This document shows, piece by piece, positions 1,057 through 58,134 of a stretch of DNA of 64,000 nucleotides. The notes beneath the pieces are model-generated. The model was not told where the DNA came from and did not search any database. It worked only from the letters and a program-made list of their open reading frames with translations. Within the stretch, counting starts at the first letter, position 1. Each line of letters starts with the position of its first letter. The DNA is from Candidatus Doudnabacteria bacterium (GTDB taxonomy: Bacteria; Patescibacteriota; Doudnabacteria; UBA920): NCBI GenBank assembly GCA_016788665.1, contig JAEUSF010000001.1:48222-112221 (forward strand), given 5' to 3'. The position numbers were made by a program, and so were the translations under genes.

Positions 1057-3651
1057 CTAAAAATTGTTGCCTGGAATTTCGTAATTTAGAATAATACTGG
1101 TATCAGCGGAATTGCCTGTTACGTCCACCGCTTTGGCTGCTATTGTGTGTTTGCCGTTTCCATAGTTATCTGGCAAATCAAAAATATATGGAATGGAATT
1201 TATGCTCTTTATAAAATTGCCGTCCACCGAAATATCTATTCTGGCAATGTTATTTTCTCCAGTTGCTGCTATTTCTATTCGGACTGGCAGGCTGAAGACC
1301 GAAGAGTTATCTTCGGGTGAGTTTATACTTATAGCGGGTGGATTGCCTATATTTGTTGGGGTTGTTGAACCGTTCAGTGAGGCAGGGTAACCAAAGCCAT
1401 TTTTTAAGGCCCAGCCATTTACTGCATTTTCCCAATTTTGATTTTTTGGATTCTCGCTTTTATAAACTAAGTATGTGCGGTAGATTATTTGATTAGGGGG
1501 TGTTAGAGGTGTGGCTGGCTGCCCGGTAAAAGAATCTATCTCGACCGCTTTATGTACGTCGTCGTATTCAGTAGGGATACTGTAGCTGGCAAAAATTTCT
1601 GTCTTTGTAGTTGGAGTAAGTTGAGTTGGAAGTTTGCCCGAAACACTGTCAACAACAATTTCTTGAATACCCGAAGGTCTTTCAAATCGTTCGACAGGAG
1701 TGTCTTTTAGGGCGTTGGTCATAAACTCTTTCCAGATTGGTGCGGCAACAATGACACCGTCAGCTCCCCTCTTCATAAGACATTTAGGGTTTTTACTTCC
1801 ACAATTATTTCCACTCCATACTCCTGCTGCCAATGACGGAGTAAATCCCATAGTCCAGCCGTCGTGCCAGTCGTTTGTGGTGCCGGTTTTAGCTGCTACG
1901 GGTCTTCCTGGTAGTGTTAGTGGTGAGTTGGAGCCGAATACGTAGCTCCGGGCATTGTTATCTGACATAATATCTGTCAGTTCATAAACTGCCTGTGGGT
2001 CTAAAACTTCTTGGGGCTTATTTTGAAATTCTTCGACTATTTGATTGCTTCTGTCTTGTATTTTTAGAATAAAAGTAGTGGCATTTTTTACGCCCTTGTT
2101 TGCCAAAGTTGCATATGCGCTTGTGTGGTCAACCAGTTTTACTTCGCATCCTCCCAATACCAACGAAAGGCCACAATTAGACAGGGGGCTGGTTATGCCA
2201 AGTTTTTTAGCTGTCTCTGTGGCATTATCTACTCCGACTAATGCCAGAGTTTTTACGGCAGGTATGTTTAAACTGCCTGCTAAGGCTTGTCTCATAGAGA
2301 TGGGTCCCCTTTCAGAACCATCGTAATTTTGAGGTATATAGTCTTTGTTATTAAACTTTCCGAAATTTGTTGTGACATCCATTAACATACTCGCTGGGGC
2401 ATATTTGTGTTCTTTGTCGAAAGCGGTTACATATACATATGGCTTAAAACTGGAACCAGGCTGTCTGGGGGCAGTGGCTACGTTGAATTGAGGTTCAAAC
2501 AGACAATTGTCACCAGATTTGCAGCTTTCTGGTGAAGATGTTCCAAAATAGTTTTTACTGCCCACCAGAGCCAAAATTTGGCCTGTCTTTGGTTCAATAG
2601 CAACCAAGCTGGAGTTGTTGGCGTTGTATTTTTTAGCGTTATTTTCTGCATACTTATTAACAGCATCCTCAGCGATTTTTTGTAATTTTGGGTCTAGTGT
2701 CGTGTACACTTTTAAACCACCTTCTTGCAAGGTTTTCTCACCAAACTTTTCAGCCAAATAGTCTTCCACCATAAAGACAAAATGAGGCGCGGTTATAGAA
2801 GTTCTTATGTTGCTAAAAGCCACCTTTTCTTCCTTGGCTTGTTTTTCCTGTTCCTGGCTTATGTAACCATCTTCCCGCATTCGCTGCAAAATGTAATTTT
2901 TTCTACCATCTAAAGTTGTTCTGTTGGGGCCGAATGGGTTGTAGCGGCTAGGAGATTGTGGTAAGGCTGCAAGATAAGCTGCCTCTGCTAAGCTTAAGTC
3001 TTTGGCGTGTTTTCCAAAATATCCTTGGCTGGCTGCTTCGGCTCCGTAAGTGTTTTTTCCGTAGGGAATTTCGTTAAGGTACATTTGCAATATTTCATCT
3101 TTTGTAAACCTGGTTTCCATAGCCACGCTTAAAATAACCTCTCTAGGTTTTCTGTCCCATGCGCTGTAGTTTATTAAAATTGCATTTTTTACCAGCTGTT
3201 GTGTTATGGTGCTGCCCCCTCCCCCACTCCTGTCCAAATTCACGGCCAGTCTGAAAACCGCCCTGCCTATTCCTGTGAAAGAAATGCCATGATGTTTATA
3301 GAAATCTTTATCTTCTATGGCAATAGTGGCCTTTTTCAAGTACTCGGAAATTTCTTCAGATGGCACCAGAGTTCTTTTTACTTCGCCGTGTATTTCGTAT
3401 AGCAAGGAGTTGTCGCGAGCATAAATCTTTGTGCTTTCGGCAACTTGTCTTTCTACTAGTTTGCCCGGGTCAGGTAGGTCTTTAGAGTAATATAAAAACA
3501 GTACGGCGAACAAAAATATTCCAACCGCTGCAGTTCTAAAAAACCAAAGTGCTAAAGTTTTTATATTCCACTTAAAACTTCGTCCTTTGGATTTTTTAAA
3601 TTTTATTTTTTTCCCAGCCTTGTCTTTGCTCTCAAAGCTATATATCCGCAT
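1057..3651 (-). CDS. mrcA: class A penicillin-binding protein (bifunctional glycosyltransferase GT51 / transpeptidase), PBP1A-like
   Basis: N-terminal TM, GT51 motifs (GGSTITQQLVKN, RKxxE), transpeptidase SSFKP (SxxK) and KTGTT motifs, C-terminal extension. Confidence 0.85.
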   Translation of the reverse strand: MRIYSFESKDKAGKKIKFKKSKGRSFKWNIKTLALWFFRTAAVGIFLFAVLFLYYSKDLPDPGKLVERQVAESTKIYARDNSLLYEIHGEVKRTLVPSEEISEYLKKATIAIEDKDFYKHHGISFTGIGRAVFRLAVNLDRSGGGGSTITQQLVKNAILINYSAWDRKPREVILSVAMETRFTKDEILQMYLNEIPYGKNTYGAEAASQGYFGKHAKDLSLAEAAYLAALPQSPSRYNPFGPNRTTLDGRKNYILQRMREDGYISQEQEKQAKEEKVAFSNIRTSITAPHFVFMVEDYLAEKFGEKTLQEGGLKVYTTLDPKLQKIAEDAVNKYAENNAKKYNANNSSLVAIEPKTGQILALVGSKNYFGTSSPESCKSGDNCLFEPQFNVATAPRQPGSSFKPYVYVTAFDKEHKYAPASMLMDVTTNFGKFNNKDYIPQNYDGSERGPISMRQALAGSLNIPAVKTLALVGVDNATETAKKLGITSPLSNCGLSLVLGGCEVKLVDHTSAYATLANKGVKNATTFILKIQDRSNQIVEEFQNKPQEVLDPQAVYELTDIMSDNNARSYVFGSNSPLTLPGRPVAAKTGTTNDWHDGWTMGFTPSLAAGVWSGNNCGSKNPKCLMKRGADGVIVAAPIWKEFMTNALKDTPVERFERPSGIQEIVVDSVSGKLPTQLTPTTKTEIFASYSIPTEYDDVHKAVEIDSFTGQPATPLTPPNQIIYRTYLVYKSENPKNQNWENAVNGWALKNGFGYPASLNGSTTPTNIGNPPAISINSPEDNSSVFSLPVRIEIAATGENNIARIDISVDGNFIKSINSIPYIFDLPDNYGNGKHTIAAKAVDVTGNSADTSIILNYEIPGNNF

Positions 3652-37042: not shown

Positions 37043-37240
37043 ATGTCTAATAAAAATACTTCCCAGTCTTTTAAAGCGGCAGGCTCCGAGCACGTAGCGG
37101 AATATGGCGTTATAAAGCACGATTTGGTCAAAGTTGTAATTCTGAATGCGGTTTATTTGGCAGCCATAGTGGCTTTGTATTTAAGTAACAAACAAAGCGG
37201 TTTCCTGGAAAAATGGTTTGCAAAAGTGTTTAATTTTTAA
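37043..37240 (+). CDS. small membrane protein (65 aa)
   Basis: Hydrophobic helix (VVILNAVYLAAIVALYL) and a dedicated terminator (aaagccagaactactaagggttctggtttttt) at 37247-37287. Confidence 0.35.
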   Translation: MSNKNTSQSFKAAGSEHVAEYGVIKHDLVKVVILNAVYLAAIVALYLSNKQSGFLEKWFAKVFNF

Positions 37241-37301
37241 ATATATAAAATAAAAGCCAGAACTACTAAGGGTTCTGGTTTTTTGTTTGGCGGCAGTGAG
37301 C

Positions 37302-37445
37302 TTATGTGTTGGCTTTGGTGGTGGTTTTTTCCTGCGCACACTTCGGGCACTTGGGCACTTTGCCAATATAACCTCGTATTTTCAGTCTCCCGTGCTTGGG
37401 GCAGCTAAATGTCCTTAGCCCTAGGTAGTTGTGAAGAGCCCGCAT
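37302..37445 (-). CDS. small zinc-ribbon protein (47 aa)
   Basis: Preferred start MRALHNYLG... is preceded by RBS aaaGGGGGGtccaaATG. CPxH...CPKC four-ligand zinc ribbon; the ORF-track N-terminal extension is rejected. Confidence 0.4.
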   Translation of the reverse strand: MRALHNYLGLRTFSCPKHGRLKIRGYIGKVPKCPKCAQEKTTTKANT

Positions 37446-37595
37446 TTGGACCCCCCTTTCTTTTGTTCCTGTCTGTAGTTTAGCAAAATTCAAAAAGGTG
37501 CAAAATAAAGGGTAAAAATTTGCATTTAATATAGTTGCGTGAAAATATTTTATTGCTATAATATATAGCATATACGCTATATTAAATATATCAAT

Positions 37596-39107
37596 ATGTC
37601 AGAAACTAAAAAAATAGGGCAGTTTATTTCGGAGCTTAGGCAGGAAAGAGGTTTGACGCAAGGTGAGTTGGCGCAAGCATTAAAAACCACACAGTCCGCC
37701 GTTGCAAGAATGGAAAAAGGTCAGCAAAATTTTTCTACAGAAATGCTTAGTAAAATAAGCAAAGTACTAAACAAGGAAATTATTACTTTGGCGGGGCAGA
37801 GCGTGAATTTTAAAGTTGAGGGCGGGCATAAATTAAAAGGCAGAATTGTTACGAACACTTCAAAGAATGCCGCCTTGGGTCTCTTGTGTGCTTCTCTGTT
37901 AAACCGCGGGGTTACAACTCTAAAAAATGTTCCTAAAATAGAAGAGGTTTTCAGAATTTTGGAAGTTATAAATAGCATTGGGGTAAAAACCGAATGGAAA
38001 AATTCTGACTTGGTTATAGTGCCTCCGAAAAAGTTTAGTATAGAAGGGCTTAATTACGAAGCGGCAATAAAAACCCGCAGCGTTATTATGCTTATGGGGC
38101 CCTTAATACATTTTGTTAAAAAATTCTCACTCCCCTTTGCAGGCGGGTGTAAGCTTGGGGAGCGAACTGTCGCACCCCATTTGTTTGCTTTGGAAAGTTT
38201 GGGAGTGGAAATAAAAACTGTGCATGATCATTACGATGTCGAAGCTAAGAAGTTAAAACCGGCAGAAATTGTTTTGTATGAAATGGGTGACACCGTTACA
38301 GAAAATGCTCTTATGGCTGCAGCGCTTGTGCCTGGTAAGACCACAATAAAATATGCATCGGCAAATTATATGGTTCAAGATATGTGTTTGTTTTTGGAGC
38401 ACATGGGGGTCAAAATCGAAGGAGTGGGTACTACCACTTTAATGGTGTGGGGTAAAGAAAAAATAGACGAAGATGTGGAGTTTAGCGTTATGGAAGACCC
38501 TATAGAGTCAATGATGTTTTTGTCATTGGCTGCTGTAACCAATTCGTCTATTGTGATAGAGCGTTGCCCAATAGATTTTTTGGAGCTTGAATTGTATAAA
38601 ATGCGCAAAATGGGTTTTAAATATAAAATTATAAAAAGTTATAAATCTGGTAATGCCCATACCAATTTGGCAGATATCCAAACTTTTGAGTCCTCGCTGG
38701 TGGCCTTGGGTGAAAAAATTCATCCTCTGCCTTCAAATAGCGGCATAAACATAGACAATTTGCCATTCTTTGTGCCTATAGCGGCAAAAGCTAAAGGTAA
38801 AACTTTAATTCACGATTGGGTATATGAGAATCGTGCTATATATTATTTGGAGCTAAATAAGCTTAGGGCAAATATAAGTTTGGCAGATGCTCATAGGGTT
38901 TATGTTGAAGGACCGACTAAGTTTAAGGCGGCGGAAGTTATTTGTCCGCCCGCACTTCGTCCGGCGGTAATTATTTTAATTACTATGTTGGCGGCTGAGG
39001 GTACCAGTATTTTGCGAAATGTTTATTCCATTGCACGCGGATACGAAGATCTGGCTAGTCGACTTAAGTCCCTTGGTGCTAAAATAGAAGTATTGAAAGG
39101 TATATAA
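37596..39107 (+). CDS. murA: UDP-N-acetylglucosamine 1-carboxyvinyltransferase with N-terminal XRE-type HTH domain fusion
   Basis: Residues 1-62 form a complete HTH_XRE (FISELRQERGLTQGELAQAL...). Residue about 70 onward is canonical MurA (KLKGRIVTNTSKNAALGLLCA...; active-site Cys in FAGGCKLGERTVAPH). TATAAT promoter upstream. Confidence 0.85.
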   Translation: MSETKKIGQFISELRQERGLTQGELAQALKTTQSAVARMEKGQQNFSTEMLSKISKVLNKEIITLAGQSVNFKVEGGHKLKGRIVTNTSKNAALGLLCASLLNRGVTTLKNVPKIEEVFRILEVINSIGVKTEWKNSDLVIVPPKKFSIEGLNYEAAIKTRSVIMLMGPLIHFVKKFSLPFAGGCKLGERTVAPHLFALESLGVEIKTVHDHYDVEAKKLKPAEIVLYEMGDTVTENALMAAALVPGKTTIKYASANYMVQDMCLFLEHMGVKIEGVGTTTLMVWGKEKIDEDVEFSVMEDPIESMMFLSLAAVTNSSIVIERCPIDFLELELYKMRKMGFKYKIIKSYKSGNAHTNLADIQTFESSLVALGEKIHPLPSNSGINIDNLPFFVPIAAKAKGKTLIHDWVYENRAIYYLELNKLRANISLADAHRVYVEGPTKFKAAEVICPPALRPAVIILITMLAAEGTSILRNVYSIARGYEDLASRLKSLGAKIEVLKGI

Positions 39108-44083: not shown

Positions 44084-45547
44084 TTGTGTTCTTGCCTGCC
44101 AAATTCTAAGGTGAAAAATATGAAAATTTTTAACGTAATAAAATACCAGCTTTATTTGCTTCAGCTGGAAAATTATGAACTGGTTCGTTATTTTGTTTTG
44201 CTTTTTAAAAAAGGCATATTACCGCCGGTTGGATTACGAAAAAGCCTTGTTTGGACTAAGAAAGCCCTATTGCTTTTTAGTTTGGCTGTTGCTACCCATT
44301 TGGTATTGCCAGCTGTTGTTTTCTTTTATTTTACTTCAGGGCTTTCGGTGGTAAGTGTTAGGTATTATGCATTGTGCGCCTTACTGCTTACTGCCTACTA
44401 TTTATTACAGTTTCTATACTTTATACTTTATACTTTATACTCTGTTTTATTCTGGCCGCTGGATTTCATAGTGAAGCAAATAATTATCAAAAAAGCTAAG
44501 TTCAAAGTAAAATATCTTGGTTCCCGAATAAAAATAATAGGTATTGCTGGTAGTTATGGTAAAACTACCATGAAGCATGCGCTTACTAAAGTACTGGGTG
44601 AAAAGTTTAAAGTGCTCAGTACCCCGGAAAGTGTAAATACTTCAATCGGTGTAGCAAGGTGGATACTAAAAGAAGTAGATGAGTCAGCTCAAATTTTAAT
44701 AATTGAAATGGGGGAGCATTACCGAGGTGACATTGAGGCGCTTTGTAAAATAGCCAGGCCAGATATTTCTGTTATAACCGGCATTAACGAAGCACATTTG
44801 GAGCGTATGGGCAGTTTGGACGAAATTGCGTCGACGGTTTTTGAGGCGGTGAGTTATTCAAAACCGGGAGCCGTAATTGTACTAAATGGTGACGACAAGA
44901 ATGTTATGGGTCTTTACAAGGAATTTGTTTGGAAAGACCATAGAGTGGAGAAGTTTCAAATTTCAAATTTCAAATTTCAAAAATTTAACGCCGAAGAGCT
45001 TTTTTGGACGGGTAACCATCCTGAAGCAGGGGAAATAAAAATACATTTATTAGGCGAGTACGCTTTGGGGTATGCAGATGCGGCAATTCAGGTTGCTAAA
45101 AGCTTTGTTATTTCTTGGGAAGAAGTAAGAAGGGGTATAGAAAAAATAAAGCCAGTAGAACATAGGTTGCAACCAATTAGGTCGGCGGGTGATTTGTTGA
45201 TAATTGACGATGCTTACAATGGTAATCCAGAGGGCGCAAGTGAGGCTATTAGGGTTTTGTCACGCATTGAAAATCGAAGGAAAGTTTATATTACTCCTGG
45301 ACTTGTAGAGATGGGCAAGGCGACGAAAGAAGTGCATATTGAAATAGGTGAGCAGTTAGTTGGTGTAGCAGATATAGTAGTGCTAATTAAAAACAGCGTA
45401 ACACCGAGTATAGAATTAGGAATTAAGAATAGAACAGAAATTATTTGGTTTAACACAGCTCAGGAAGCACACTCAAAACTGAGTACTATTTTAAAGCCGG
45501 GAGATGTGGTGGTATTCCAAAATGACTGGGGAGATAACTATGTTTGA
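44084..45547 (+). CDS. murF: UDP-N-acetylmuramoyl-tripeptide--D-alanyl-D-alanine ligase (MurF) with hydrophobic N-terminal extension
   Basis: Mur ligase motifs GIAGSYGKTT, PDISVITGINEAHLERMGSLDEI, DAYNGNP, PGLVEMG. The N-terminal about 120 aa is predicted TM, unlike the canonical MurF N-domain. Contains heptamer tandem repeats. Confidence 0.8.
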   Translation: MCSCLPNSKVKNMKIFNVIKYQLYLLQLENYELVRYFVLLFKKGILPPVGLRKSLVWTKKALLLFSLAVATHLVLPAVVFFYFTSGLSVVSVRYYALCALLLTAYYLLQFLYFILYTLYSVLFWPLDFIVKQIIIKKAKFKVKYLGSRIKIIGIAGSYGKTTMKHALTKVLGEKFKVLSTPESVNTSIGVARWILKEVDESAQILIIEMGEHYRGDIEALCKIARPDISVITGINEAHLERMGSLDEIASTVFEAVSYSKPGAVIVLNGDDKNVMGLYKEFVWKDHRVEKFQISNFKFQKFNAEELFWTGNHPEAGEIKIHLLGEYALGYADAAIQVAKSFVISWEEVRRGIEKIKPVEHRLQPIRSAGDLLIIDDAYNGNPEGASEAIRVLSRIENRRKVYITPGLVEMGKATKEVHIEIGEQLVGVADIVVLIKNSVTPSIELGIKNRTEIIWFNTAQEAHSKLSTILKPGDVVVFQNDWGDNYV

Positions 45548-46709
45548 AATATCAAATATCAAATATCAAATATCAAAGTTAAGGCATGTCTTTACAAGGC
45601 CTAGAGTAAGCTACGAGCCGCTTATTGAAGTGAGGATTTCTAAAGAGGCGATTTTGCATAATCTAAAAACTTATAGAGAAGCTTATCCAAAGTTTGGATT
45701 CGTGCCAGTTTTAAAAAGCAATGCCTATGGGCATGGGTTAGTAGAGGTTGCGAGTATTTTAGACAAAGAGAATGCGCCGTTTTTTATGGTGGATTCTTTT
45801 TATGAAGCTTTGGTTTTAAGAAGAGCAGGAATTAAAACCAAAATTTTGGTGTTAGGCTACGCTACGCTTGAGCAAATAAATAAAAATAATTTAAAAGATG
45901 TAAGCTTTGCGATTATAGACTTAGAGCAGTTAAAAAATATTTCAGCTAACTTAATAAGGAAAACTTTTTTTCATTTAAAAATTGACACGGGAATGCACAG
46001 GCAAGGCATGTTACCTGGGCAAGTAATGGAGGCGGTAAAAATTATTCGAAGCAACAGTAATTTTATTTTGGAAGGTGTGTGTAGTCATTTTGCTGATGCG
46101 GATGGAAAAGACCAGTCTTTTTCAAAAGGACAAATAAAACTTTGGAATGAAGTTTCGAGAGATTTGCAAAATCTATTTAGTTCTATTAAATTTTTGCATT
46201 TGTCCAATACGGGTGGGGCGTTTTATTTACCCGAAATAAATGCGAACGTGGGACGTTTGGGTATTGGCCTGTATGGATTCAATACTTCCCATTTTAGCAA
46301 TTTGAACTTAAAGCCAGCTTTAGAAATGGTTTCGATTGTAACTTCCATAAAAACTATTTCCGCTGGAGAAAAAGTAGGCTACAATAATTTATATACCGCT
46401 ACGCGGCCGACTAAAATTGCAACAGTGCCAGTTGGTTATAACGAAGGTTTGGATCGCAGATTATCCGATAAGGGCTTTGTAAAAATTAATAACTCCTTTT
46501 GCCCTATTGTGGGACGTATAAGTATGAATATGTGCAGCATAGATGTTACAGAAATAAAAAATATAAAGTTAGAGGATGAAGTCGTTGTAATAAGTAGAAA
46601 TTCACAAGATAAAAATTCAGTAGAAAGTATATCGGAGCTTACGGGTCAGATACCTCATGAAATTTTGGTTGATGTGCCAGGGTATTTAAAAAGAGTTGTT
46701 AGTGGTTAA
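45540..46709 (+). CDS. alr: alanine racemase
   Basis: PLP-lysine motif VLKSNAYGHG; start ATG 45540 overlaps the murF stop (ATGTTTGA). The ORF track gives an alternative start at 45504. Confidence 0.85.
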   Translation: MFEISNIKYQISKLRHVFTRPRVSYEPLIEVRISKEAILHNLKTYREAYPKFGFVPVLKSNAYGHGLVEVASILDKENAPFFMVDSFYEALVLRRAGIKTKILVLGYATLEQINKNNLKDVSFAIIDLEQLKNISANLIRKTFFHLKIDTGMHRQGMLPGQVMEAVKIIRSNSNFILEGVCSHFADADGKDQSFSKGQIKLWNEVSRDLQNLFSSIKFLHLSNTGGAFYLPEINANVGRLGIGLYGFNTSHFSNLNLKPALEMVSIVTSIKTISAGEKVGYNNLYTATRPTKIATVPVGYNEGLDRRLSDKGFVKINNSFCPIVGRISMNMCSIDVTEIKNIKLEDEVVVISRNSQDKNSVESISELTGQIPHEILVDVPGYLKRVVSG

Positions 46710-46748
46710 ATTTGTAATTTTATAGTTTTTAATTTTTAAATAAACCCT

Positions 46749-47093
46749 ATGAACTATGATCTCGAGGAGCGTACAGCAAAGTTCGGTGAGAATATTTTAA
46801 ATTTTTTAAAAACTATTCAGGCAGATCATATAACCAAGCCTTTAATAAACCAGCTTGTTCGCTCGGCAACAAGCATAGGTGCTAATTATATGGAGGCGAA
46901 TCAAGCAAGTTCAAAAAAAGATTTTTACAATAAAATAAGAATTTCTCAAAAAGAGTCTAATGAAACCAAGCATTGGATAAGAATGTTATCAACTGTTATG
47001 GGAGAAGAAAAAGAGCAATTAAGAAATTTTTGGAAAGAAGCGCATGAATTAACATTAATTTTTGCAAAAATATCGAAAAGTAATCAAAAGTAA
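46749..47093 (+). CDS. four-helix-bundle protein (23S rRNA intervening-sequence protein family, TIGR02436)
   Basis: SIGANYMEANQASSKKDFYNKIRISQKESNETKHWIRM is the canonical signature; inserted between alr and ddl. Confidence 0.75.
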   Translation: MNYDLEERTAKFGENILNFLKTIQADHITKPLINQLVRSATSIGANYMEANQASSKKDFYNKIRISQKESNETKHWIRMLSTVMGEEKEQLRNFWKEAHELTLIFAKISKSNQK

Positions 47094-47131
47094 ATTATTT
47101 AAAAATTATAAAATTACAAATTAAAAATTAT

Positions 47132-48310
47132 ATGCACATTGGAGTTTTTTTTGGCAGCGGAAGTGTTGAACACGACATTTCTATAATTACCGCTAACTTA
47201 GTTATAAATGGGCTTAAGAGCTTAAACCATTCTGTGACTCCTGTTTATATTACCAAGCAAGGTAAGTGGATGCTGGGCGAAGAGCTTGGTGACTTAAAGC
47301 TTTTTTCTGACCCAGCCAAAAAAGTAGAAGATCAAAAAAAATATTCAGAATATTATTTAGATATGCAGGAGTCGGTGGGAAAGATGGTGTTTAAGAAAAA
47401 AGGTTTAATGGGTAAGTCAGTAGCCATAGATTTAGCTTTTCCAGCCATGCACGGGACTCTTGGTGAGGACGGGACTTTGCAAGGATTGTTTGAAATGTTC
47501 CGTCTGCCTTATGTGGGCTGCGGGGTCGCAGCGTCGGCGGTGGCAATGGATAAGGCTCTGACTAAAATTGTTATGCAGTATGCAGGTGTTAGAACAACTA
47601 AATTTAAAGTGTTGTTCAAAAATGATTGGGAGAAGGACAGCGAGTTAGAGAAAAGTAAAGTAAGAGAACTGGTTTTTCCGGTTTTTGTTAAGCCTGTACA
47701 TTTGGGTTCTTCTATAGGCATTGGTAAAGCGAAAGATGAAAAAGAATTGGAGCAAAAAATAGAAGTAGCTTTCTTTTACGATCATAAAATTGTGGTGGAA
47801 GAAGCAGTGGAAAATTTAATGGATGTTACCTGCTGTGTAATAGGAAACAATGAAACCGATACACAGGCTTCAAATTTGCAGGAGTCGGTTTATACCCAGG
47901 ACATGTTTAATTTTGAAGATAAGTATATAACCGACGGGGGTAGCCAAACAGGCAAGGCTCAAAATAAGATGGTTATTCCTGCAAGATTAAACAGCGAGCT
48001 TACTAAAAAAATTCAAGATACTGCGAAAGTGGTTTATAAAGCTGTTGAGTGTACAGGTATTGCCAGGGTAGATTTTTTAGTAAATACTAAAACTAATGAA
48101 TTTTTTGCCAATGAAATTAATCCAATGCCTGGAACGTTGTATCATCATTTGTGGAAAGCCAGCAGCGTCGAGCTTCCAGATTTGTTAACAAATCTTATTA
48201 ATTTTTCGCAGGAGCAATACAAGGAAAAGCAGAGCGTAAATTTTACATTTGAGTCGAGTGTTTTAAAAGGATTGGGCGGGAGTAAGGGTAAGCTTGGAAA
48301 GCTTGGTTAA
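47132..48310 (+). CDS. ddl: D-alanine--D-alanine ligase
   Basis: ATP-grasp architecture, N-terminal HIGVFFGSGSVEHDISIITA, C-terminal catalytic motifs. Confidence 0.9.
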   Translation: MHIGVFFGSGSVEHDISIITANLVINGLKSLNHSVTPVYITKQGKWMLGEELGDLKLFSDPAKKVEDQKKYSEYYLDMQESVGKMVFKKKGLMGKSVAIDLAFPAMHGTLGEDGTLQGLFEMFRLPYVGCGVAASAVAMDKALTKIVMQYAGVRTTKFKVLFKNDWEKDSELEKSKVRELVFPVFVKPVHLGSSIGIGKAKDEKELEQKIEVAFFYDHKIVVEEAVENLMDVTCCVIGNNETDTQASNLQESVYTQDMFNFEDKYITDGGSQTGKAQNKMVIPARLNSELTKKIQDTAKVVYKAVECTGIARVDFLVNTKTNEFFANEINPMPGTLYHHLWKASSVELPDLLTNLINFSQEQYKEKQSVNFTFESSVLKGLGGSKGKLGKLG

Positions 48311-57189: not shown

Positions 57190-58134
57190 TTGGAATTTGA
57201 AACTAAAAAAATCAATAGTGAAACTTTGGGTGAGTATCTAAAAGCTGTAAGGCAGGCTTTTAGATTAACCATTCCTGATGTGGCAGAGGCAACGGGCGTT
57301 AATTCCAAGTTGGTGACGGTCTTAGAAGAAGGCAAGATGCAAAATTTGCCCGCAGATGTGTATGTAATTGGGGCTTTAAATAAGTTGGCTAAGTTTTATA
57401 ATCTTAGTGAAAGCGAGCTACAGTTTCAGTATAAGAAAGAAAGATCTATAGCGAGGCATATAACTGGTAAAACAAACCCGGCGGTTATGCAGATTACCAA
57501 TTTTTGGAAGCAGCTTGTTATAACGCCTAAGGTTTTATTGTTGCTCGGAGCTGGTTTATTTGTTGCTTTTACTGTTATTTATTTATTGTGGCAAGTTTCA
57601 GCAATTAATAGGTCGCCTGATTTGGAGATTATTAGCCCAAAAAATGAAGAAGTAGTAAAAAGTTTGTCAGTTAAAGTTGTAGGGCAGACGGACAGAGGAG
57701 CAAGTGTTTTGGTAAACGGGCAGGAAATTTTTGTAGATAATCAGGGTAAGTTTTCCAACATGTTAAGTTTGGTTCCGGGGGTCCAAGAAATTACAGTGCT
57801 TTCAAAAAATAGGTTTGGTAAAGAAAGTAAAAAGGCTGTTAAAGTCATAATTGAAAATTCAAGTGAGTTACAAAATAATCAGGTTAAACTTGAGTTAAGG
57901 TTCTCAAGCGCGGTAAATATAAAATACGTAAAGGATTCTGATCAGGCAGTTGAAAGAGATTTTAATGCTGAAGAAAATTTAGTAATCGAAGCAAAAGAAA
58001 AAATTGAGATTATAAGTGTCGGTGACGGCGGAGCGGTACAAGGCGTTTTAAATGGGCAGCCTTTAGGTCCTTTGGGAAAAAAAGGGGAGCCTTTAACAAA
58101 AGTTACTTTTTATAAAGAGTCCGGCGGGAATTAG
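57190..58134 (+). CDS. rodZ: RodZ-like cytoskeleton protein (N-terminal HTH, TM, C-terminal DUF4115-like)
   Basis: XRE-like HTH (LGEYLKAVRQAFRLTIPDVAEATGV), single TM (VLLLLGAGLFVAFTVIYLLW), beta-rich C-terminus. Confidence 0.5.
   Translation: MEFETKKINSETLGEYLKAVRQAFRLTIPDVAEATGVNSKLVTVLEEGKMQNLPADVYVIGALNKLAKFYNLSESELQFQYKKERSIARHITGKTNPAVMQITNFWKQLVITPKVLLLLGAGLFVAFTVIYLLWQVSAINRSPDLEIISPKNEEVVKSLSVKVVGQTDRGASVLVNGQEIFVDNQGKFSNMLSLVPGVQEITVLSKNRFGKESKKAVKVIIENSSELQNNQVKLELRFSSAVNIKYVKDSDQAVERDFNAEENLVIEAKEKIEIISVGDGGAVQGVLNGQPLGPLGKKGEPLTKVTFYKESGGN

Follow-up and report, generated by a model that had tools for sequence, protein, structure and literature searches.

The 64,000-nucleotide stretch of Candidatus Doudnabacteria DNA analyzed here (hereafter, the window) encodes, between positions 37596 and 39107 of its forward strand, a protein that joins an N-terminal helix-turn-helix (HTH) domain of the XRE family to MurA, the fosfomycin target that catalyzes the committed step of peptidoglycan synthesis. 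The gene, which we call HTH-murA, occupies a single reading frame without internal stop and is preceded by a palindrome that we predict to be its operator; its product is identical to a protein deposited at NCBI from a Candidatus Doudnabacteria metagenome-assembled genome (MAG). The features of the coding region are as follows.

37596..39107, forward strand: HTH-murA coding sequence, 503 amino acids plus stop codon, with its ATG at 37596
37596..37781, forward strand: XRE/Cro-C1-type HTH domain, residues 1-62 (Pfam HTH_3 and helices of the AlphaFold2 model)
37689..37715, forward strand: Thr32 (specificity position) and recognition helix Q33-E40, TQSAVARME (conservation and operator covariation)
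37770..37805, forward strand: flexible linker, residues 59-70 (AlphaFold2 confidence)
37806..39104, forward strand: catalytic body of MurA (UDP-N-acetylglucosamine [UDP-GlcNAc] 1-carboxyvinyltransferase), residues 71-503 (NF006873, structure superposition and motifs)
38148..38150, forward strand: codon of the catalytic Cys185, in the GGCKLGER loop (alignment to solved MurAs)

An original prediction, made from the sequence, had described an uninterrupted in-frame fusion whose first 62 or so residues constitute a complete XRE domain, and both elements of that description were borne out. In Pfam searches, residues 11-62 of the 503-residue protein matched HTH_3 (E 2.4e-13; 50.3 bits, cut-off 23), and residues 74-488 matched EPSP_synthase (E 4.5e-48). 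Structure prediction, which had been proposed as a check, returned an HTH, a disordered linker and a MurA body: the AlphaFold2 model of the full protein (mean predicted local distance difference test score [pLDDT] 85.6; predicted TM-score 0.79) places four helices at residues 2-17, 22-28, 33-40 and 48-58, with pLDDT values of 70-88, and the linker falls below a pLDDT of 50 at residues 63-67, with a mean of 53 over the block 61-70. In this model the HTH looks tethered to the MurA body through a flexible linker of about 10 residues, rather than docked on it. With a score above the Pfam gathering cut-off and the expected helical fold, the N-terminal domain is of the XRE/Cro-C1 type, and the gene product is a member of both the MurA and XRE families. 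The nearest solved relatives of the HTH are the DNA-binding XRE proteins SinR, C.AhdI, ClgR, PezA, 434 repressor and HipB. In an alignment of 15 homologs, T31, Q33-R38, E40, G42, Q44 and N45 are invariant, and the recognition helix is conserved to the same degree as the catalytic core.

The MurA body scores 324 bits against the NCBIfam MurA subfamily NF006873, above its cut-off of 297, and 316 bits against the stricter MurA equivalog TIGR01072, below its cut-off of 393, which indicates a divergent clade of MurA. The canonical MurA previously claimed for this gene is therefore a MurA of a divergent kind, with the claimed catalytic Cys in place. The best solved match is the MurA structure 5ujs (E 9e-56), in which GGCKLGERTV aligns on GGCAIGQRPI; because this loop coincides with the catalytic GGCAIGQR loop of solved MurAs, the catalytic residue is assigned to Cys185, the counterpart of E. 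coli Cys115. The Cys is found in 83 of 83 homologs examined, Actinomycetota included, and the K-N, D-N-L-P-F-F, E-N-R and L-R-P active-site motifs are conserved among the homologs. The AlphaFold2 model superposes on 45 solved MurA and NikO chains with target-normalized TM-scores of 0.82-0.91, displaying the two-lobed enolpyruvyl-transferase fold. The protein thus shares its fold, Cys loop and active-site residues with canonical MurAs (E. coli/E. cloacae MurA, Gram-positive MurAA/MurAB), but differs from them in having only 25-30% sequence identity and an added N-terminal HTH. On these grounds the MurA body is most likely catalytically competent. One divergent HTH-MurA homolog (P0148, 501 aa) carries IPLIDLEFNN in place of the GGC.LG.R loop and a His in place of the LRP arginine, and may be a catalytically dead member of the family that acts as a regulator only.

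The fusion is widespread. Both Pfam domains are present in all of the 120 best homologs (67-89% identity, 499-535 aa), an outcome in line with the ortholog comparison that had been proposed for the fusion, and a scan of one genome per species identified at least 580 species-representative genomes with a relative. The best 80 of these, which were examined, span MAGs labeled as Doudna-, Lipton-, Taylor-, Nomura-, Kerfeld-, Uhr- and Gracilibacteria, Paceibacterota and Saccharibacteria (some of these labels may be imprecise), as well as Actinomycetota. The actinomycetal relatives, including Nocardioides halotolerans DSM 19273, are 54-56% identical to the window protein and lie in loci of 60-72% GC (about 70-72% in the Nocardioides type), a composition that indicates that the gene is native there. 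Using the Nocardioides protein as query, we found the fusion across named, cultured Nocardioides species at 87-98% identity; some entries carry a MurA annotation and others the name "helix-turn-helix domain-containing protein". The Nocardioides neighborhood consists of transporters and a phosphodiesterase. In much of the Candidate Phyla Radiation (CPR), MurA normally takes this fused form.

Four CPR loci (L063, L064, L069 and L078) encode a MurA of the same clade without the HTH, and no HTH was found anywhere in them, in any frame or on either strand. A separate HTH gene upstream of murA in orthologs, which had been named as an observation that would count against the fusion, was therefore rejected: the domain is absent or lost in these relatives, with no HTH gene nearby. 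Small proteins 55-66% identical to the HTH were likewise considered as stand-alone relatives, but most of them continue into MurA sequence and are truncated or frameshifted fusions. Given this conservation, a stop or frameshift peculiar to one assembly is very unlikely as the origin of the fusion, and an assembly or sequencing artefact joining an HTH gene to murA, for which we found no evidence, has a negligible probability, being refuted by the recurrence of the architecture in independent NCBI, JGI, ENA and Logan assemblies, in at least 580 species genomes and in Nocardioides isolate genomes.

Predicted operator and promoter

Immediately upstream of HTH-murA, the window presents the following features.

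37535..37540, forward strand: -35-like hexamer TTGCGT, weak and tentative, 16 nt upstream of TATAAT and matching TTGACA at 3 of 6 positions
37557..37562, forward strand: -10 hexamer TATAAT, abutting the operator (read from the sequence)
37564..37581, no strand assigned: predicted operator, the 18-bp palindrome TATAGCATATACGCTATA with a single mismatch in its symmetry; it ends 14 nt upstream of the ATG
37578..37583, forward strand: second -10-like hexamer TATATT, formed by the right end of the palindrome, as in most homologous loci

The palindrome has the consensus TATA-K-CA-Y-AT-R-TG-M-TATA or, in its general form, TAT-N-K-CA-Y-AT-R-TG-M-N-ATA, and it was found in almost every upstream region read. 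The 18-mer of the closest relative (L081) is identical to that of the window, and the copy in Nocardioides, a high-GC actinomycete, is TTATCTCACATATGAGTTA. Sites were scored on a scale of 15 points, 12 for fixed positions and 3 for symmetry pairs; base 5 of the half-site does not enter the score. The 64-kb window contains a single site scoring 13 or more, the one at 37564..37581, and no further operator site despite the presence of murF, alr and ddl; Markov-shuffled sequence yielded 0.2 sites at 13 or more and none at 14 or more. Across 653 kb of loci, 56 of the 58 sites scoring at least 13 lie within 250 nt upstream of the gene, a zone amounting to about 3% of the sequence, and one of the two outliers (L051) precedes a two-gene operon ending in HTH-murA. 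An upstream site scoring 12 or more is present in 65 of 74 HTH-bearing loci, and Actinomycetota of 70-72% GC keep the palindrome, there only at HTH-murA. No strong site was found in the seven loci lacking a recognizable in-frame HTH motif. Among the HTH-less relatives, L063, L064 and L078 have no site scoring 12 or more, and the sole hit in L069 is weak and lies about 4.7 kb downstream of the murA start; this locus retains the promoter half of the palindrome (TATGCTATA), while the left half has decayed.

The site ends a median of 11 nt before the start codon (58 loci), and its right half resembles a promoter element: 54 of the 58 have a TG where an extended -10 requires it, the last 4 bases of the site together with the next 2 read TATAAT, TATACT or TATATT in 39 of 58, and the hexamer has an A at position 2 and a T at position 6 in 40 of 58. 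The right half of the palindrome is thus predicted to be the extended -10 element of the gene. Because this element lies so near the start codon, little or no leader is expected on the mRNA, and any protein occupying the palindrome would mask the -10 element, since the right half-site forms it.

Variation in the operator follows variation in the HTH. The residue that precedes the invariant Gln of the recognition helix (position 32) is either Ser or Thr. Of the 76 half-sites paired with Ser, 69 have T at base 5, 7 have C and none has G, and 49 of the 52 paired with Thr have G; the window and its two closest relatives conform to the pattern, the window pairing Thr32 with G. On a neighbor-joining tree inferred from the MurA domain only, the residue changed independently about six times, and each change is accompanied by a change in the operator. 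The window, L081 and L082 (Thr/G) are nested among Ser/T-type relatives, L194 (Thr/G) is sister to L055 (Ser/T), and within a large Thr/G clade L011 and L053 have returned to Ser, paired with T or C. Hybrid sites, found in L037, L022 and L040, look like intermediates. This residue-base pattern is the one expected if the HTH of MurA itself reads the base directly, and it would be hard to explain with another binder. Positions 32-33 presumably correspond to T27-Q28 of the 434 repressor, judging from alignment offsets and the 434 sequence.

Two further observations concern this upstream region. On the minus strand of the window, two promoter-like matches overlap the operator, and an ORF (open reading frame) of 89 aa with a CPKH...CPKC motif (37302..37571) starts inside it and is followed by a terminator-like hairpin (37278..37257); because the closest relative matches this ORF only weakly (34% identity), it is probably spurious. 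In L083, which encodes a 76% identical homolog, about 180 nt of GC-rich sequence (about 1330..1500) lie between the operator (TATATCATATACGATATA at 1300) and the gene; this stretch contains long-range inverted repeats (ccacggctaaagcc ... ggctttagccgtgg) and looks like an inserted repeat or structured element.

The palindrome at other genes

A metagenome scan by the palindrome alone, with TATAGCRTATAYGCTATA as query, retrieved 120 loci. Seven of them adjoin an HTH and MurA detectable with tblastn, to which inspection added L122 and L153, where HTH-murA lies divergently across the site, and L196. More broadly, 74 of the 120 loci adjoin XRE-family HTH genes: 48 lie directly beside an HTH gene, in a cluster that includes HTH-MurAs, and 26 beside an ORF for a Gp49/RelE-like toxin, 13 of which have a detectable HTH match about 400 nt downstream of the site. 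The broader XRE subfamily found at the palindrome has a similar helix, TKQSVISRLE, and its occurrence at the same site supports the role of the palindrome as an HTH operator and also shows that the site is not peculiar to MurA. On unrelated metagenome contigs, TATAGCATATATGCTATA precedes numerous small XRE antitoxin-like genes of 93-104 aa whose helix reads GTKQSVISRLESG (for instance L085, L088, L094, L107 and L110, among L085-L204), and it also precedes operons of a Gp49/RelE-like toxin and an HTH gene (L086, L103 and L204).

The palindrome also occurs beside other genes of cell-wall synthesis. A single site lies between HTH-murA and a divergent mreB in L192, L122, L153 and L073, and between HTH-murA and a divergent murB in L194, where it is of the G type, and in L028 and L046, where it is of the T type. 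In L200 the palindrome lies 9 nt before murC, and in six palindrome-retrieved loci (L093, L101, L151, L167, L176 and L195) it lies 10-16 nt before glmS. When six glmS loci were instead picked by protein homology (carrying Paceibacteria, Kaiserbacteria and Nomurabacteria labels), three of the six had a site identical to TATAGCATATACGCTATA and two had none; those with a site are L205, L206, L207 and L209, the last of which differs only in its final base. Kaiserbacteria CP060229.1 is among the genomes with the site at glmS. In these homology-chosen loci, 12-22 nt separate the end of the site from the ATG, and the site is flanked by a -35-like TGGTA and a TATAAC -10 hexamer; its 18-mer is that of the window operator (but for the final base in L209), in the same orientation. 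Every glmS locus retrieved is of the Paceibacteria type, with a G-type site where one is present, and these lineages match the Thr/G-type clade of HTH-MurA. These comparisons make glmS a candidate target in trans that would link the supply of UDP-GlcNAc to MurA, although another XRE protein could be responsible, and suggest that a small cell-wall precursor regulon (murB, mreB, glmS) may be under HTH-MurA in some CPR lineages. The window itself contains a cluster of murF, alr and ddl (44084..48310, forward strand), with no operator-like site upstream of any of the three; its murF is matched by the family model only from residue 148, which leaves the N-terminal region unassigned.

Readings of the fusion

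Taken together, these data suggest that HTH-MurA is probably a bifunctional trigger enzyme, that is, a MurA that also serves as autorepressor at the palindrome in its own promoter. The protein unites an enzyme and a DNA-binding domain in one polypeptide, with a predicted operator at its own promoter, as trigger enzymes do, and a cognate palindromic DNA site, as expected of an XRE protein, is indicated by gene specificity, absence from HTH-less loci and covariation with residue 32. Autoregulation, which the original prediction had put forward as a suggestion, hence receives comparative support from these three lines and from the overlap with the -10 element. In the mechanism that we propose, the HTH would bind the 18-bp palindrome as a dimer and, when the MurA protein is abundant, its occupancy of the palindrome would block RNA polymerase, so that the first committed step of peptidoglycan synthesis would be under negative autoregulation; in some CPR lineages this site would also serve a divergent murB or mreB promoter, or would act ahead of glmS. 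Comparison shows a conserved fusion, a site tied to the gene and overlapping its promoter, and covariation of protein and DNA. Physical binding, its dimeric mode and repression rather than activation are inferred, as would be any modulation by ligands (UDP-GlcNAc, phosphoenolpyruvate [PEP] or UDP-N-acetylmuramic acid [UDP-MurNAc]); the sign of the regulation is taken to be repression because the site overlaps the promoter.

Several observations weigh against this autorepressor reading. Nine of the 74 HTH-bearing loci have no site scoring 12 or more, and a consensus promoter scan called no forward-strand promoter at the window site, where the -35 element is weak. Dimeric binding also sits uneasily with MurA being, in general, considered a monomer. 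Finally, XRE antitoxin-like proteins unrelated to HTH-MurA use the same palindrome, and another factor could in principle occupy the site.

An extension of the autorepressor reading holds that the protein is a metabolite-gated regulator, in which the open or closed, ligand-bound state of the MurA body (UDP-GlcNAc, PEP adduct or UDP-MurNAc) would control dimerization or the availability of the HTH. Precursor supply would then be read out as promoter occupancy at murA and, for certain lineages, also at glmS, murB, murC and mreB. Solved MurAs with bound UDP-MurNAc and a covalent PEP adduct are among the structural matches, which makes gating of DNA binding by ligand state plausible. We regard this extension as possible but tentative. 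Were it true, a single polypeptide would combine the roles of committed enzyme and sensor-regulator in the peptidoglycan precursor pathway, in bacteria with few transcription factors.

The palindrome might instead be just a strong, possibly bidirectional, extended -10 promoter, or the site of another XRE regulator, with the HTH of MurA binding something else or nothing. The right half-site does form an extended -10 element, divergent genes flank the site in some loci, and other XRE proteins use the same palindrome. A promoter, however, has no need of a symmetric left half where a gene lies on one side only, as in many loci, and the HTH-less L069 has kept the -10 half and lost the left one. Another regulator would not account for a base 5 that tracks the HTH residue of MurA through about six independent switches, and the site persists at 70-72% GC in Actinomycetota, where it is found only at HTH-murA. 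We consider this explanation improbable.

A further alternative is that the protein is mainly a transcription factor with a MurA-fold ligand sensor, catalysis being left to a separate canonical MurA, at least in Actinomycetota. The score below the strict equivalog cut-off and the existence of at least one family member (P0148) without the catalytic Cys/Arg loop would fit such a sensor. Against it stand the retention of the Cys in all 83 homologs and of the active-site motifs, the lack of a second MurA homolog in the 64-kb window, and the conservation of the MurA body at a level similar to that of an essential enzyme (88-90% identity across Nocardioides species). It, too, seems unlikely to be correct.

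The HTH could also be a protein-protein module that does not bind DNA, tethering MurA to the cytoskeleton or the cell-wall machinery in the manner of RodZ, a cell-wall-associated transmembrane protein whose N-terminal XRE-type HTH binds MreB and not DNA. A RodZ-like protein with an XRE-fold HTH is encoded in the same window, and mreB is the divergent neighbor of HTH-murA in one CPR lineage. The resemblance of these two HTH domains had been pointed out in the original prediction; both do contain ETKKI, but the implied kinship did not hold up, the similarity (31% identity over 68 aa) being that of the generic XRE fold. The RodZ-like domain is of the HTH_25 type, which in RodZ is followed by a transmembrane segment and a periplasmic domain, whereas HTH-MurA has an HTH_3 domain followed directly by the MurA body, and a tblastn search of the window with the MurA HTH returned only itself at E <= 1. 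The closest solved relatives of this HTH are all DNA binders, and a tether would leave unexplained the gene-specific palindrome, its loss together with the HTH and the residue-base covariation. We therefore judge a protein-protein role to be very improbable.

The autorepressor reading places HTH-MurA beside known enzymes that regulate transcription. BirA, the biotin protein ligase and repressor of the bio operon, is the textbook trigger enzyme, and resembles HTH-MurA in combining an N-terminal HTH and an enzyme in one polypeptide, with a palindromic operator that overlaps a promoter of its own pathway. It differs in its winged-helix (rather than XRE) HTH and in enzyme fold and pathway, and its dimerization and DNA binding are driven by the biotinyl-AMP intermediate, a kind of ligand switch that would be hypothetical for HTH-MurA. 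PutA and NadR are also metabolic enzymes fused to a DNA-binding domain, with the state of the enzyme feeding back on transcription of the pathway; PutA differs in using a ribbon-helix-helix domain and a membrane-association switch and NadR in serving NAD salvage, and neither acts in peptidoglycan synthesis.

Among XRE proteins, the HipB/Y4mF type provides the best NCBIfam match of the HTH outside MurA, TIGR03070 (couple_hipB). HipB and XRE antitoxins are autorepressors that bind palindromes overlapping their promoters, and the HipB operator, TATCC-N8-GGATA, is likewise an 18-bp TAT...ATA palindrome. However, the score of 40.7 lies below the TIGR03070 cut-off of 71.65, no toxin gene is adjacent, and the HTH of HTH-MurA is fused to an enzyme of 430 aa.

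The known control of MurA is post-translational, through ClpCP/ReoM proteolysis in Firmicutes and feedback by UDP-MurNAc, and is not known to involve a built-in DNA-binding domain. We found no description of the HTH-MurA fusion or of its operator in the literature searched. A MurA equipped to bind its own operator would, if confirmed, represent a novel and very direct mode of regulation. CPR organisms have small genomes and few regulators, and their gene control is almost unexplored. The presence of the fusion in cultured Nocardioides makes the prediction testable at the bench, the covariation of Ser/Thr with T/G offers a ready specificity-swap experiment, and the identical site at glmS suggests coordination of precursor supply with the committed step.

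Gene neighborhood in the window

The neighbors of HTH-murA are a small membrane ORF and genes for DUF4446, bactofilin, VTT/DedA and RlmH proteins, with no toxin gene among them, and the order bactofilin, DUF4446, small ORF, HTH-murA, VTT/DedA-like and RlmH is kept in the closest relatives. The small ORF, directly upstream of HTH-murA (37043..37240, forward strand), encodes 65 aa with a hydrophobic C-terminal half and matches no Pfam family; it is conserved upstream of HTH-murA in L001-L004, L007, L008 and L081-L083 at 45-85% identity. In the RodZ-like ORF (57190..58134, forward strand; TTG start, 314 aa), the HTH_25 domain is joined to a Glucodextran_B-like beta domain (E 1.3e-13), which is not a usual companion of RodZ-type HTHs.

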